Source: Alkalispirochaeta sp.
GTDB lineage: Bacteria; Spirochaetota; Spirochaetia; DSM-27196; Alkalispirochaetaceae
Direction: 5' to 3'
DNA length: 64,000 nt
NCBI GenBank assembly: GCA_965242725.1
Contig: CBDESZ010000025.1
Location: 288,001-352,000 of the forward strand
Below, piece after piece: positions 1 to 24,918 of this stretch (the stretch's first letter is position 1; each line of letters starts with the position of its first letter). Both the position numbers and the translations under genes were made by a program. The notes below the pieces were generated by a model that saw only the letters and a list, made by a program, of their open reading frames with translations, ran no database searches and was not told the origin of the DNA.

Positions 1-837
1 GTAGTTGAACTTCTCCTCCGTGTTTATGCCCTTTTCGTCGAGGATGTATCCGTCCGGCCCGGAGATGGTGACAACTTTTGCGCCGAGTTCCGTCGCTTTC
101 ATAATGGAACCCCACGCGACGTTTCCAAAGCCTGAAACGGAAATCTTCTTTCCCGCGAGGGCGTCGTTGCGACGCTGCACCATTTCGTTGAGAAAGTAGA
201 CGGCGCCGAATCCCGTCGCTTCCGGTCGTATTAACGAACCGCCCCAGTTCCGGTTTTTGCCGGTGAGGACGCCCACGTGGTCGCTGCGGAGGCGCTTCCA
301 CTGGCCGTAGAGGAATCCGATCTCACGGGCGCCGACACCGATATCCCCGGCGGGGACGTCAAGTTCCGGACCGATATACTTCTGGAGCTCCGTCATAAAC
401 GCCTTTGAAAAGCGCATGATCTCATTGTCCGATTTTCCCTTGGGATTGAAGTCTGAACCGCCCTTGCCTCCTCCGAGGGGCAGACCGGTCAGGCTGTTCT
501 TGAAGATCTGTTCAAATCCGAGAAATTTCAGTCCCCCCAGGGTGACGCTGGGGTGAAACCGGAGCCCCCCTTTATACGGGCCAAGGGCGTTGTTAAACTG
601 TACACGATATCCCCGATTGACGTGGAGGTCGCCGTTGTCGTCTTCCCATTCCACCTTGAAGGTGATGACCCGATCGGGCTCGGTGATTCGGTCGAGGATC
701 TTTGCCCCGAGGTAGGCGGGATTGGTATTTACCACATCGATAATGGATTCAACAACCTCTTCTGCCGCCTGCACAAACTCCGGCTGAGCGGGATTCCGTT
801 GTTCCAGTTCCGCAATGAACGTCTTCAAATCATACAT
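1..837 (-). CDS. gdhA: NADP-specific glutamate dehydrogenase, N-terminal part (runs off window start)
   Basis: Not in ORF track. Read manually from ATG at 837 (SD TAAGGAG): [21 protein letters not shown]... with [39 protein letters not shown] and RPEATGFG motifs. Confidence 0.95.
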
Positions 838-854
838 AGCGCGCTCCTTAGACA

Positions 855-926
855 TGTCGCATTATTTGAACGTCAGTATATATACTGCAACAATGTCATT
901 CTCAATCGCCTTTCACGCTTTGTCAA
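855..926 (-). promoter_or_regulatory. gdhA sigma70-type promoter plus tandem operator
   Basis: TTGACA(926-921)-17 nt-GAGAAT(903-898), then TGTTGCAGTATATATACT-ga-CGTTCAAATAATGCGACA (892-855). Confidence 0.7.
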
Positions 927-952
927 GGAAGAATTATCGGATCGATTTTTTC

Positions 953-1025
953 TTGACAGTCCGAAGGTTCCGGTGCAGAATAGGTCTTGTTGCAAGATAG
1001 TAACATATGTTCAAATAACGGAACA
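953..1025 (+). promoter_or_regulatory. Aminotransferase-operon promoter plus tandem operator
   Basis: TTGACA(953-958)-17 nt-CAGAAT(976-981), then TGTTGCAAGATAGTAACA-ta-TGTTCAAATAACGGAACA (988-1025). Confidence 0.75.
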
Positions 1026-22190: not shown

Positions 22191-23182
22191 TGGATCTTCT
22201 CTCCCTGAAGTTGGATGCCGCGGTTCCCGTCGATGCGATTTCGACGACCGCCGTTCATATAGCTTCGCAAATTTTCGGCCGCTTCGGCTACGCATCGTGT
22301 ACGGGATTCCACGGTCGCCCATCCTATGTGGGGGGTTATGATGCAGTTTGGCGCCGATAGGAGCGGATGGTCTCCCTCAGGCGGTTCCTCGTACCCGACA
22401 ACGTCGACGGCGGCGCCGGCGAGGCTCCCGTTGTGAAGCGCTTCCGCGACGGCGGACTCATCGGTGAGCCCGCCCCTGGAGGTGTTGATCAGGAGGGCCG
22501 ACTCCTTCATTTGCGTCAATGCCCGTCGATCAATCAGTTCCGTCGTCTCTTCCGAAAGGGGGGTGTGTAACGTGACCACATCCGCCGCAGCGAGCAGATC
22601 GGACCACGAGAGCCACCGGACCTCGACACCGGGTATCGTCTTTCGCCGCGCCTCCCAGCCGAGGACCTTCATACCCAGGGCACCTGCGAGCTTCGCAACG
22701 GCCACGCCGATCGCGCCGAATCCCAGTATGGCGATAGATTTTCCCCGGAGTTCGAGAGCGGGGAAATCGGTATACGAGACCGGTTCGCCCCGACGCCATT
22801 TTCCCCGGTGAACGAGGGAGTTGTAGTCGCACACGCGGTGTGCCAGGTTGAGAATGAGTGCAAGTGTCAGTTCCGCAACGGAGTCGGTTGAATAGTCCGG
22901 GACATTTGTCACGGCAACTCCGGCGGACATCGCGGCGTCCACGTCAATTCGATCGTACCCTGTGGAAAAGAGCCCGATATACTTGAGCCGCGGCAGACGG
23001 GCGATACGTTCAGCGTGAAGAGCGACGTGATCCACGAGGATTGCGTCGGCGTCGGCGGCCAGTGAATCCAGAATGTCCTGGGAGAAATGGGGAGCCGCGG
23101 TGAAACTGCCCAGTTCATGAAAGGGCGACCACGAAATATCTCCGGGATTCACCCCGAATGCATCGATTGCAACGATCTTCAT
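22187..23182 (-). CDS. D-2-hydroxyacid dehydrogenase (glycerate dehydrogenase/hydroxypyruvate reductase-like)
   Basis: NPGDISW, TGYD, NVPDYST, ILGFGAIG, INTSRGG, EEPP, ITPHIGW; start MKIVAID at 23182. Confidence 0.9.
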   Translation of the reverse strand: MKIVAIDAFGVNPGDISWSPFHELGSFTAAPHFSQDILDSLAADADAILVDHVALHAERIARLPRLKYIGLFSTGYDRIDVDAAMSAGVAVTNVPDYSTDSVAELTLALILNLAHRVCDYNSLVHRGKWRRGEPVSYTDFPALELRGKSIAILGFGAIGVAVAKLAGALGMKVLGWEARRKTIPGVEVRWLSWSDLLAAADVVTLHTPLSEETTELIDRRALTQMKESALLINTSRGGLTDESAVAEALHNGSLAGAAVDVVGYEEPPEGDHPLLSAPNCIITPHIGWATVESRTRCVAEAAENLRSYMNGGRRNRIDGNRGIQLQGEKIQ

Positions 23183-24831
23183 TCTGCTCCCGGACACTGA
23201 GACGCGACGGAATCGGGAACCTTTCCGGCAAACTCCCCCTCGAAATGGGCGTGAAACTCCCGGGCGAGGCGTTGTGCGTGTTCCTCGTATGCTTCGGTAT
23301 CCTTCCACGCCATGCGGGGATTCAGCACCTCCCGGGGAACCTCCCGACATGTCACCGGTATGGAGAGGTTGAAAAACGGTTCCTTTTCAAATTCTCCGCC
23401 GTCCAGCTCCCCCGCGAGTGCCGCTTTTACCATGGAACGGGTCATGGCGATGTCTATCCGCCTGCCCGTTCCGTAGGCACCGCCGCTCCATCCGGTGTTG
23501 ACGAGGAACACCCTGGTCTGATGGCGATCGAGTTTTTCGCCGAGGAGATCGGTGTAGTCCTTGGGGTTACGGGGCATAAAGGGTGCGCCAAAGAATCGGG
23601 AGAAGACGGATTGGGGTTCCACAACACCCGTCTCCGTACCGGCCAGCTTGGAGGTATATCCCATCATGAACCAGAACATCGCCTGCTCGTTGGTCAGGCG
23701 CGCAATGGGCGGAAGTACACCGTAGGCGTCGGCGGTAAGGAAGACGATTGTCCGGGGATGCCCGCCCATGGACGACTCCTTGATGTTGGAAAGGTATGTG
23801 AGCGGGTAGGATGCCCGGGAGTTCTGGGTGAAGCGGTCATCATCGAAATCGAAGGCACCGGTGGGATAGACCATGAGATTTTCGACGAGCGCGCCGTGAA
23901 AGAGGTAGTGATCCGGGTGAAACACTGCGTGATACACCTCAGGCTCCTTGCGCGGATTCAGCTGGTAGAGTTTTGCGTAACAGCCGTTTTCAAAATTGGC
24001 TATTCCCGTGTCGCTCCATCCGTGTTCATCGTCACCCAAAAGCGCCCGGTCGGGAGCCGTAGAAAGGGTGGTCTTCCCCGTCCCCGAGAGTCCGAGAAAG
24101 ACGGCGATATCACCGCTTTTTCCTTCATTCGCACTGCAGTGAAGGGGCAGCACCTCCTGCTCCGGCAGGTAGTAGTTCATTACGGTAAACATGAGTTTCT
24201 TGATTGCACCCATGTAGGACGAGCCGAAGACGATGCCGATGCGGCGGTCAAAGTCCATGACTACTGCCATCGTTGAGGTTGAGCCGTCGGCGAGTTTTCT
24301 CAGCCGCCCCTCGTATCGCTCAGGGTGAAGTTTGTCGTACTGATTCACCAGAAGGTAAAACGGATAGTCCTCAAAACAGCTCGATTCGATTCCTGTAGGT
24401 TCCGGACGAAACATATTGTCTATGAACAGACCCGCCAGTGGGTTGTCTACAATTGAACACACCGGGAGTGCGTATGAAGGATCCGCTCCGATCGCCTTTT
24501 CCTGGACATAGACCTTCGGCTTCAACTCCAGCGCCTGCATCGCATCCTCAAATATCATGTCGAAGGTTTCTTCGTCGATGGCGATCGAGTAGGGTGAGTT
24601 CCAGTCAATCGTATTTTCACTCTCCGGGCGCCTGACGATCATCGTGTCTTTCGGACTTCTTCCCGTGGAATCCCTGGGCGTCCACGTGACGAGAGTGCCG
24701 CTTTCAAGACGTATCGCGTTCCAGTGGCTCACGGCATTATCAATCAGGACGCGCCGTGTCGGATTCCGAAAGACCTTTCCCGTCCGGTCGGCGAGGGTCC
24801 TGTCTATCCTCTGATGGTGAGTCTCGTGCAT
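23179..24831 (-). CDS. pckA: Phosphoenolpyruvate carboxykinase (ATP)
   Basis: TGRSPKD, LHCSAN, GLSGTGKTTLS, LGDDEHGW, ENGCYAK, FLTADAYGVLPP, LVNTGW; ATG 24831 behind GGAGG. Confidence 0.95.
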   Translation of the reverse strand: MHETHHQRIDRTLADRTGKVFRNPTRRVLIDNAVSHWNAIRLESGTLVTWTPRDSTGRSPKDTMIVRRPESENTIDWNSPYSIAIDEETFDMIFEDAMQALELKPKVYVQEKAIGADPSYALPVCSIVDNPLAGLFIDNMFRPEPTGIESSCFEDYPFYLLVNQYDKLHPERYEGRLRKLADGSTSTMAVVMDFDRRIGIVFGSSYMGAIKKLMFTVMNYYLPEQEVLPLHCSANEGKSGDIAVFLGLSGTGKTTLSTAPDRALLGDDEHGWSDTGIANFENGCYAKLYQLNPRKEPEVYHAVFHPDHYLFHGALVENLMVYPTGAFDFDDDRFTQNSRASYPLTYLSNIKESSMGGHPRTIVFLTADAYGVLPPIARLTNEQAMFWFMMGYTSKLAGTETGVVEPQSVFSRFFGAPFMPRNPKDYTDLLGEKLDRHQTRVFLVNTGWSGGAYGTGRRIDIAMTRSMVKAALAGELDGGEFEKEPFFNLSIPVTCREVPREVLNPRMAWKDTEAYEEHAQRLAREFHAHFEGEFAGKVPDSVASQCPGAE

Positions 24832-24846
24832 ACAACCTCCCTTTGT

Positions 24847-24918
24847 TGTATCATTATATGAACGACTGTTACAATTGTGAGACAATATCAGTGTAAGTTG
24901 GGTCGATGCCGCTGTCAA
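24847..24918 (-). promoter_or_regulatory. pckA operon promoter plus tandem operator
   Basis: TTGACA(24918-24913)-17 nt-TACACT(24895-24890), then TGTCTCACAATTGTAACA-gt-CGTTCATATAATGATACA (24884-24847). Confidence 0.72.

Follow-up and report, generated by a model that had tools for sequence, protein, structure and literature searches.

The present analysis concerns a window of 64,000 nucleotides from Alkalispirochaeta sp. (contig CBDESZ010000025.1; G000:C25:288001-352000 in our numbering), the first part of which carries a putative regulon for the catabolism of ectoine and hydroxyectoine. The source genome, G000, comprises 4.34 Mb and is 91.8% complete. The window genes were identified by open reading frame (ORF) calling and family profile scans, and model scores are given against the curated cut-offs. 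The nearest named homologues of the window proteins belong to Spirochaeta and Alkalispirochaeta, and a DNA run compared with window positions 1-20000 showed no differing letters among the long pieces listed; it probably represents the source sample.

On the forward strand, a gene for a Dat/EctB-type class III transaminase (dat, 1053-2429; TIGR00709 399.8 bits against a cut-off of 401.6, EctB model 331 against 552) is followed by a gene for a phosphorylating aspartate semialdehyde dehydrogenase with a predicted NAD-type L-D-I-P-E-N loop (asd, 2437-3483; asd_B 437 bits against 324), which would take the role of DoeC, and by a gene for an M20D amidohydrolase (3480-4688; TIGR01891 346 against 154, DoeB2 model 275.9 against 550). 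Three genes of one TRAP (tripartite ATP-independent periplasmic) transporter come next, encoding a UehA/TeaA-like binding protein (4710-5783; best PDB match 3FXB, E 1.7e-43, then 3GYY and 2VPN), the small permease DctQ (5860-6417) and the large permease DctM (6419-7708), with a terminator-like hairpin after the last gene (7736-7767). On the reverse strand, the regulator gene iclR1 (14077-14877) precedes eutD1, an ectoine hydrolase homologue (12872-14047; 468 bits against 613), eutB, encoding a pyridoxal phosphate (PLP)-dependent dehydratase (11878-12867; NF005680 414 against 413), and eutC, of the cyclodeaminase/mu-crystallin family (10881-11867; NF006141 418.5 against 408, TIGR02992 356 against 472). 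EutB and EutC therefore pass the NF005680 and NF006141 cut-offs, and their TIGR models score below cut-off. Also on the reverse strand are the 5' part of gdhA (1-855; cut by the window start, whole gene G000:C25:287503-288855), encoding a predicted NAD-type glutamate dehydrogenase, and a group formed by pckA (23179-24831; ATP-dependent phosphoenolpyruvate (PEP) carboxykinase, a divergent second copy), a D-2-hydroxyacid dehydrogenase (2HADH) gene that overlaps both flanking genes by 4 bp (22187-23182), and a gene for an NF005679 Asp/Glu-racemase-like protein at the EutA position (21447-22190), which is a core gene in the relatives with a single operon and whose product had no solved relative in the PDB comparison. 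The only aspartate kinase gene of G000 lies on the forward strand about 2 kb upstream of the window, just past gdhA (C25:286022-287338).

The initial annotation of this DNA had listed a TRAP transporter, eutD, eutB, eutC, the M20D gene, the transaminase, Asd, three IclR regulators, gdhA and pckA, and ORF calling and family scans found all of them where it had placed them; its list was incomplete, as it left out a second eutD, the racemase-like gene, a PPDK_N/receiver gene, a satellite module and the nearby kinase.

Alignments of upstream regions revealed a common promoter-operator arrangement, in which a promoter of the form TTGACA-17-nAnAAT is followed by a 37-bp element in which two imperfect GTT...AAC palindromes lie some 21 bp from each other. 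For a search across all of G000 (4.3 Mb), a matrix was built from 19 sites of other genomes, all of them dat or iclR1 sites and none from gdhA or pckA. Scores above 17 bits were obtained at four distinct places only, namely ahead of dat-asd-M20D-TRAP, iclR1-eutD-eutB-eutC, gdhA and pckA-2HADH-racemase. The dat operon has a TTGACA-17-CAGAAT promoter (953-981) and an operator at 988-1024 (forward strand, element 953-1024; 55.6 bits at 988), and the iclR1 operon has TTGACA-17-CACAAT (14913-14885) with an operator at 14876-14840 (reverse strand, element 14840-14913; 53.3 bits at 14876). The operators of gdhA and pckA are located 6-7 nt past their own promoters: TTGACA-17-GAGAAT (926-898) with an operator at 892-856 for gdhA (reverse strand, element 856-926; 36.5 bits at 892), and TTGACA-17-TACACT (from 24918) with an operator at 24884-24848 for pckA (reverse strand, element 24848-24918; 35.0 bits at 24884, and 24.8 on its reverse strand). 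The next score in G000, 16.9 bits, was the only other match above 12 bits; it lies before genes for an amino-acid carrier (AgcS) and a second M20D protein (45%) on the same contig (L222:5860-8596), a possible weak regulon member. A matrix built on a single site gave no discrimination. The kinase gene, the PPDK_N gene, iclR2 and the satellite module with eutD2 have no copy of the operator.

A pattern derived from these sites was found in all eight EutD-bearing genomes of the window's family (28 sites) and in none of the 14 EutD-less ones, and the reversed control gave one match. As the pattern was written after the gdhA and pckA sites of G000 were known, those two matches exist by construction, and its real test lies in the absences and in the downstream genes. 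All 24 sites in the seven relatives come after TTGACA, and the genes behind them are dat (6), iclR1 (6), gdhA (5), pckA (4), the 2HADH gene (1) and a relocated TRAP gene (2). Counting G000, a correctly spaced operator precedes gdhA in six family genomes and pckA in five. The iclR1 GTG start is located 7 nt past the -10 box, which makes the gene leaderless, and the overlap of the motif with this start points to autoregulation through a putative binding of IclR1. From this position and from the co-occurrence of motif and gene, the 37-bp motif is likely the IclR1 operator. Control by IclR-type regulators, as initially proposed, would fit this shared promoter-operator, with the restriction that only IclR1 among the three belongs to the conserved core. 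Additionally, the 5' leader of dat (window 987-1052) resembles the first iclR1 codons, which suggests that the promoter-operator of dat goes back to a duplication and is a relic of an ancestral operon headed by iclR1.

A scan seeded with dat recovered 11 spirochaete loci at 80-93% identity, each preserving some of the window's gene order; several of these are stretches of family genomes also used elsewhere in this work and are not independent. EutD was found in 8 of the 22 genomes of the window's family, in 4 of the 401 genomes of a phylum sample (G000 included) and in 15 of the 151 genomes of another family, f12. The core genes form one co-directional train, iclR-dat-asd-M20D-TRAP-racemase-eutD-eutB-eutC-eutD, in G384 and in the 15 f12 genomes that have EutD (one f12 locus begins at the TRAP genes, at a contig end). 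The last gene of the operon is an aspartate kinase gene in G384 and in eight of the 15 f12 loci; it is absent in six and cut off in one. Since the core is a single operon in other families, the window holds one conserved unit whose genes have been rearranged. The genes gdhA and pckA lie outside the f12/f13 operons, and the motif occurs once, ahead of the first operon gene, in each of G345, G384 and G453; gdhA and pckA can accordingly be regarded as regulon recruits of the window's family. Their membership, claimed from the beginning, is upheld by the shared operator in G000, but as an addition of this family and not as part of the core.

Several other arrangements were observed during this analysis. 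G420 has a decay remnant, lysC-asd-M20D, without eut genes or operator (L090:6795-10386), and a record titled Woeseiaceae contains an isolated dat, 71% identical, whose surrounding ORFs look phage-like or mobile and include none of the other cluster genes (L017:9983-11362). A sediment RNA run (X5) yielded contigs of relatives, mostly less than 95% alike, over gdhA, dat-asd-M20D-TRAP and eutD1; these carry no level or strand information and may stem from DNA carry-over. Moreover, 17 of 77 metagenome EutD loci (L121, L127, L128, L132, L133, L137, L140, L148, L149, L155, L159-L162, L168, L173 and L191) represent a second non-canonical cluster type, with a PanB-like protein and a protein of about 316 aa without Pfam or NCBIfam match, plus a GluDH-family enzyme or a class I aminotransferase and often IclR, M20D, a racemase-like gene, TRAP or RidA. 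They have no dat, asd or kinase, which suggests another downstream route.

The equivalents of Arg99, Asn127, Cys128, Gln155, Glu220, Lys223, Arg245 and His252 are invariant in all 30 copies of the cluster Asd. The L-A-S-A-R-S loop of the Streptococcus pneumoniae aspartate semialdehyde dehydrogenase (ASADH) has become L-D-I-P-E-N in these proteins, and the Ser and Arg of the NADP 2'-phosphate site are gone. An Asp at this loop position is a signature of NAD-dependent enzymes. The L-D loop is present in 30/30 cluster copies and in 120/120 of their nearest homologues, among them proteins named Sediminispirochaeta smaragdinae and Desulfuromusa sp. The three enzymes that lead the PDB matches have an A/S-S-x-R-S loop, as do biosynthetic Asd copies, and the S-x-R-S form is retained in a biosynthetic hom-lysC-asd locus and in a further Asd copy of G000 on contig C27. 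The 15 best Asd matches among the 151 f12 genomes come from exactly the 15 EutD genomes, and seven further L-D Asds make up the rest of the clade (support 0.99). For the S. pneumoniae enzyme, Ser37 and Arg39 have been placed at the adenine pocket, an arginine on the 2'-phosphate has been tied to NADP preference, and the reverse reaction has been likened to that of glyceraldehyde-3-phosphate dehydrogenase (GAPDH) (PMC3276109). A single-sequence AlphaFold model of the cluster Asd had a pLDDT of 34 and was unusable. We consider it quite probable that the cluster Asd is of the NAD type and oxidative. The proposed passage through aspartyl-phosphate gains support from this predicted loop type and from the kinase found beside or inside the cluster.

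L-D Asds also occur in unrelated operons (L261, L262, L263, L264, L275 and L276). A position next to TAXI-TRAP importers was confirmed for the copies of G451, G453 and G460: in G451 and G453 with a thiamine diphosphate (ThDP) enzyme, a class I aminotransferase and asd, and in G460 with asd and an FAD oxidoreductase pair, a layout that is similar in G448, G474 and G561. In G000 itself a second L-D Asd, 88% identical, is directly followed by a second, canonical pckA, without an operator (L004:8402-11124, contig C5).

The aspartate kinase is of the CaAK type, and its catalytic residues are invariant in 47/47 sequences. The lysine-site residues of CaAK (N308, G312 and S333-G334) are eroded; at the G312 position, G occurs in 10 of 47 sequences, as against 68 of 69 outer homologues. 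The idea that this feedback site was lost as a specific adaptation was rejected, given that the resident f12 kinases are eroded as well. The eight EutD genomes of the family, which fall into three separate lineages, and the remnant-bearing G420 have this kinase only; the other 13 have two different kinases, and in G000 both housekeeping kinase sites are assembled but empty. Operon-type kinases from two families group in a clade of their own (0.99). They take the place of the resident copy and persist as deletion remnants in the EutD-less G514 and G434, where a lone operon-type kinase lies at the operon's flanks (L267, L268). A single origin of the two cluster-kinase groups was unsupported (0.26). 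In four of four genomes inspected of genus g163, a monofunctional kinase gene comes after, and is co-oriented with, an operon for a multimeric FeFe-hydrogenase (L258-L260, L250-L254), and this is probably the resident site. Two earlier ideas were withdrawn: a dedicated catabolic kinase, because the broad type occurs in 137 of the 151 f12 genomes, and a link between ectoine and the position beside the hydrogenase operon, because the same 137 genomes have the kinase, beside malK as in g163. Judging from clades and gene positions, the kinase is recruited and interchangeable, not dedicated. The kinase step is near equilibrium and reversible; no equilibrium constants for this chemistry were found in the literature searched. 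That the kinase is not dedicated weakens the claim of ATP formation without overturning it, since a single reversible kinase could work in both directions, with the NADP-type C27 Asd serving synthesis.

Regarding the substrate, the closest structure to EutD1 is Halomonas elongata DoeA (6TWK, E 1.9e-106), and the canonical motifs are kept; in sequence comparisons it groups with proteins named Desulfosporosinus and Alkaliphilus. The second paralogue, eutD2 (20174-21364, forward strand; 463 bits against 613), is 50.5% identical to eutD1 and has four altered pocket motifs (SPAI, AHLTF, HTM and YVPDW). The binding protein has UehA and TeaA structures as the three best of its 37 PDB matches. At the positions that we take to be the TeaA ligand contacts, E8, E9, R144, N184, F187 and F209 are identical, and F66, W167 and W188 are replaced by W, Y and A, so that eight of these nine positions are identical or aromatic-conservative; the pocket residues of both EutD and TeaA are putative assignments based on conservation. 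Among the 77 metagenome EutD loci, EutE is present in 8, an M20D protein at least 43% identical to that of the window in 28, and both in none, and this mutual exclusion supports the M20D protein as the deacetylase, for which the DoeB2 of a methanotroph is a precedent (PMC7192451), although the window's protein does not stand out in the DoeB2 model. The M20D protein is therefore the putative deacetylase of N-acetyl-2,4-diaminobutyrate (N-acetyl-DABA), in the role of EutE, and Dat a candidate DABA:2-oxoglutarate transaminase in the role of DoeD. The pathway substrate is, on these similarities, very probably of the ectoine type. The best PDB match of GdhA is 1BGV/1AUP, the latter labelled NAD-specific, with the motifs GFGNVAWG and SGPDG in common.

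The absence of EutE/DoeB, DoeC, DoeD, EnuR, AsnC and Usp from the window, claimed in the initial annotation, extends to the whole genome, as no orthologue was found in the 91.8%-complete G000 by profile and tblastn searches. The AstE family and TIGR02994 (EutE) gave no match in the window or in G000. The tblastn queries were proteins of a canonical cluster, L181, whose identities were verified: EutE and AsnC (one query) gave no match in G000, the best match of the DoeC type had 33-35% identity and that of EnuR (MocR) 23-27%, neither an orthologue, and for the DoeD type the transaminase of the window itself came out best, at 32%. With Usp of L148 as the query, G000 gave no match. Twelve generic aldehyde dehydrogenase (Aldedh) matches occur in G000, none inside the cluster, so that a non-orthologous Ssd is possible. 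In G000 EctA gave no match and EctC none above cut-off, and the same searches across the family gave EctA above cut-off in 0/22 genomes and no EctC in 21/22; the EctC match is in the EutD-bearing G405 (L086), where no EctA match was found. A split into producers and consumers within the genus was rejected, EctC occurring in 1/22 only. A haem-copper oxidase (COX1) was not found in G000 in a search that did not include bd oxidase, and three FeFe-hydrogenase matches and Pta are present, consistent with the suggestion that the route is fermentative. G000 also keeps ThrC, two Hom and DapA.

The following pathway can be proposed. The TRAP transporter would import ectoine and hydroxyectoine, EutD1 (and EutD2) would open the ring to N-alpha-acetyl-DABA, and the M20D protein would free acetate to give DABA, from which Dat would form aspartate semialdehyde and glutamate. 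Asd would convert the semialdehyde, phosphate and NAD+ to aspartyl-phosphate, and the kinase, running backwards, would yield aspartate and ATP in the manner of GAPDH and phosphoglycerate kinase (PGK). A housekeeping aminotransferase outside the regulon would turn aspartate into oxaloacetate, PckA would produce PEP, and GdhA would regenerate 2-oxoglutarate, freeing ammonia and NADH; H2 would be the outlet for the electrons. Hydroxyectoine would be processed by EutB, EutC and the racemase-like protein. Here the genes, synteny, motif, loop change and absences are observed, and every substrate, cofactor and direction is what we infer from them. On balance we favour, with moderate confidence, the reading that four promoters with one motif control anaerobic ectoine and hydroxyectoine catabolism, in which an NAD-type Asd and a kinase working backwards conserve one ATP; towards the capture of ATP itself we lean with slightly more reserve.

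A number of observations weigh against this reading, and some of them favour other explanations. The window GdhA also scores above the cut-off of the NADP-specific model, and no aspartate aminotransferase lies within the regulon. With respect to the kinase, it is possible, if rather unlikely, that the semialdehyde is made without any gain of ATP, the kinase being a housekeeping enzyme and the semialdehyde feeding threonine, methionine or lysine synthesis, or aspartyl-phosphate simply hydrolysing. The kinase is the sole one in G000, has no operator and is transcribed separately, and it must also run forwards, given that ThrC, the two Hom and DapA need it. It is of the same broad monofunctional type as in 137 of 151 f12 genomes, whether or not these carry EutD, its eroded feedback site is shared with resident f12 kinases and is not specific, it is missing from six of the 15 f12 operons, and cluster and resident kinases replace each other, hence do the same job; Bacillota clusters, moreover, use Hom and an aldehyde dehydrogenase. 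However, an inducible NAD-type Asd would be pointless if Hom and DapA alone drained the semialdehyde, the kinase is the last operon gene in two families that also keep a bifunctional kinase of 806-834 aa, and the co-regulation of pckA and gdhA points to a flux via aspartate and oxaloacetate. A chance association of gdhA and pckA with an otherwise ordinary eut operon could be read from the gdhA-PPDK_N pair that exists independently in the EutD-less G416 and G420 and from the f12/f13 operons, which lack both genes and have one motif site per genome; we consider it very improbable in view of the well-spaced operators before both genes in the window's family and of the further gdhA and pckA copies elsewhere in G000, which have no motif.

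The same chemistry could serve another diamino-acid or cyclic-amidine solute, such as hydroxyectoine only, N-acetyl-DABA or a ring homologue, and there is a small chance of this. EutD1 and EutD2 score below the TIGR02993 cut-off, and the four pocket motifs of EutD2 are changed; the binding protein is distant from UehA/TeaA and has lost one aromatic residue, with Ala at the TeaA position W188; and the substrate of Dat is not fixed by sequence. Further points against the favoured reading are that Dat and EutC (TIGR models) fall below the curated ectoine cut-offs, that the best PDB matches of Dat are a racemase and gamma-aminobutyrate transaminases, that the M20D protein is below the cut-off of DoeB2 (NF038260), with the other M20D of G000 scoring 287.9 against its 275.9, and that Ruegeria pomeroyi EutD is efficient only with EutE (PMC8739950). 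Against another substrate stand the canonical motifs of EutD1, the UehA/TeaA rank of the binding protein, the NF005680 score of EutB, and the intact semialdehyde-binding residues of Asd, which fit the four-carbon backbone of DABA. A forward operation of kinase, Asd and Dat towards DABA or ectoine for osmoprotection, with the TRAP transporter as an osmolyte importer, would agree with the place of Ask-Asd-EctB as the opening half of the ectoine biosynthetic route (PMC5924519) and with the EctC of G405, but it is hardly to be expected where EctA is above cut-off in no family genome and EctC in one, and where the genes share control with a hydrolase, a deacetylase, gdhA and pckA and Asd has an NAD-type loop.

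The remaining features of the window were also annotated. A protein of 995 aa with receiver and PPDK_N domains (7793-10780, forward strand) appears to be a passenger with gdhA; it is encoded in seven of the eight EutD genomes and two of the 14 others of the family, and its gene adjoins gdhA also in G416 and G420. The accessory regulator gene iclR2 lies at 14942-15730 (reverse strand). The satellite module (15773-20112) encodes an MFS protein (+), IclR3 (-), a hydantoinase/carbamoylase-type M20 protein (+) and a HutG/arginase-family hydrolase (+), and has tandem palindromes of its own, weaker ones, at positions 17812 and 17832. In several relatives, parts of it lie next to a third eutD or upstream of dat (L009-L011, L093, L098), and the module and these layouts hint at a second amidino or carbamoyl substrate. 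The remainder (24973-64000) presumably holds ordinary housekeeping genes, judged by eye, including an RND-type efflux set, adenylate kinase, NAD kinase, RecN and the cell-division cluster mraW-murF-mraY-ftsW-ftsQAZ; the family scan added an ARMT1-like phosphatase.

Ectoine is an abundant osmolyte of saline sediments and soda lakes, and the degraders characterised in the cited literature use the EutE/DoeB-Ssd-Atf route. If the proposed reading is true, it describes an anaerobic ectoine route and a new ATP-forming use of two well-studied biosynthetic enzymes, with ATP earned at a step where known ectoine degraders earn none. The wider proposition is that ectoine is fermented by anaerobic spirochaetes, and by some Desulfuromusa-like bacteria, through a substrate-level phosphorylation not recognised so far, in which a dedicated clade of NAD-specific Asd and an unregulated kinase take the opening steps of lysine and threonine synthesis backwards in the manner of GAPDH/PGK. 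In this view the L-D Asd clade has been reused in other TRAP-fed catabolic operons, and biosynthetic kinases of the hosts have been displaced again and again by the recruited one. This proposition has in our estimation an even chance of being correct. The analysis names a natural clade of putative NAD-type Asd, which may be useful for cofactor balancing in lysine, threonine or ectoine strains, and supplies an exact operator sequence open to a cheap in vitro test. The cultured Sediminispirochaeta smaragdinae has source-named homologues of EutD1 (76%) and of the L-D Asd. An NADH-using Asd is known from Tistrella mobilis, in a biosynthetic engineering setting (PMC13577085).

We found no description of this spirochaete variant in the literature covered, which excluded subscription journals. 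The claim of a distinct route holds for the spirochaete variant, but an eutE/ssd-less architecture has already been noted in other phyla: for Thermodesulfobacteriota, clusters carrying a pair of eutD genes have been predicted, and for Bacillota, pucR-eutBCD-atf/abgB-thrA-adh (PMC13188858, 2026). These clusters resemble the window in the two eutD homologues, the lack of eutE, ssd and EnuR and the AbgB/M20-type amidohydrolase, and both cases are sequence predictions; unlike the window, the Bacillota use Hom and an aldehyde dehydrogenase, and no operator or cofactor switch is described in the parts seen. The text and supplements available for that paper do not contain "spiroch", "asd", "aspartate kinase" or "lysC", and the grey genes of its Fig. 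6 could include asd. In Bacillota-type eut clusters of our own set (L152, L154, L158 and L165), a Cys/Met PLP enzyme (NF006097 above cut-off in L152) stands where that paper writes atf. The methylotroph doeBDAC cluster, in which a mutant accumulates N-alpha-acetyl-DAB, likewise replaces EutE by a non-AstE, M20-related deacetylase, the divergent DoeB2 (NCBIfam NF038260), and has no EnuR, but it keeps DoeC and DoeD, has no importer and serves osmolyte turnover in an aerobe (PMC7192451).

Compared with the biosynthetic Ask-Asd pair (CaAK 3TVI, PMC4142519; ASADH 2GYY, PMC3276109), the window enzymes keep all catalytic residues of both partners and differ in the acidic loop, the lost lysine-feedback residues and the co-regulation with importers and hydrolases; the GAPDH/PGK couple, with its reversible phosphorylating aldehyde chemistry, is a mechanistic analogue. 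What is new here is the operator-defined regulon, the switch in the Asd cofactor loop and the pattern of kinase displacement. With the canonical Eut/Doe systems the window shares a UehA/TeaA-like TRAP transporter, EutD, EutB and EutC, and the proposed route through N-acetyl-DABA, DABA, aspartate semialdehyde and aspartate. It differs from them in that EutE, Ssd, Atf, EnuR, AsnC and Usp are missing and M20D, Dat, a phosphorylating Asd, a kinase and IclR are present instead, together with two EutDs and with gdhA and pckA under the common motif. The window system works like Eut/Doe and is not a member of canonical Eut/Doe.

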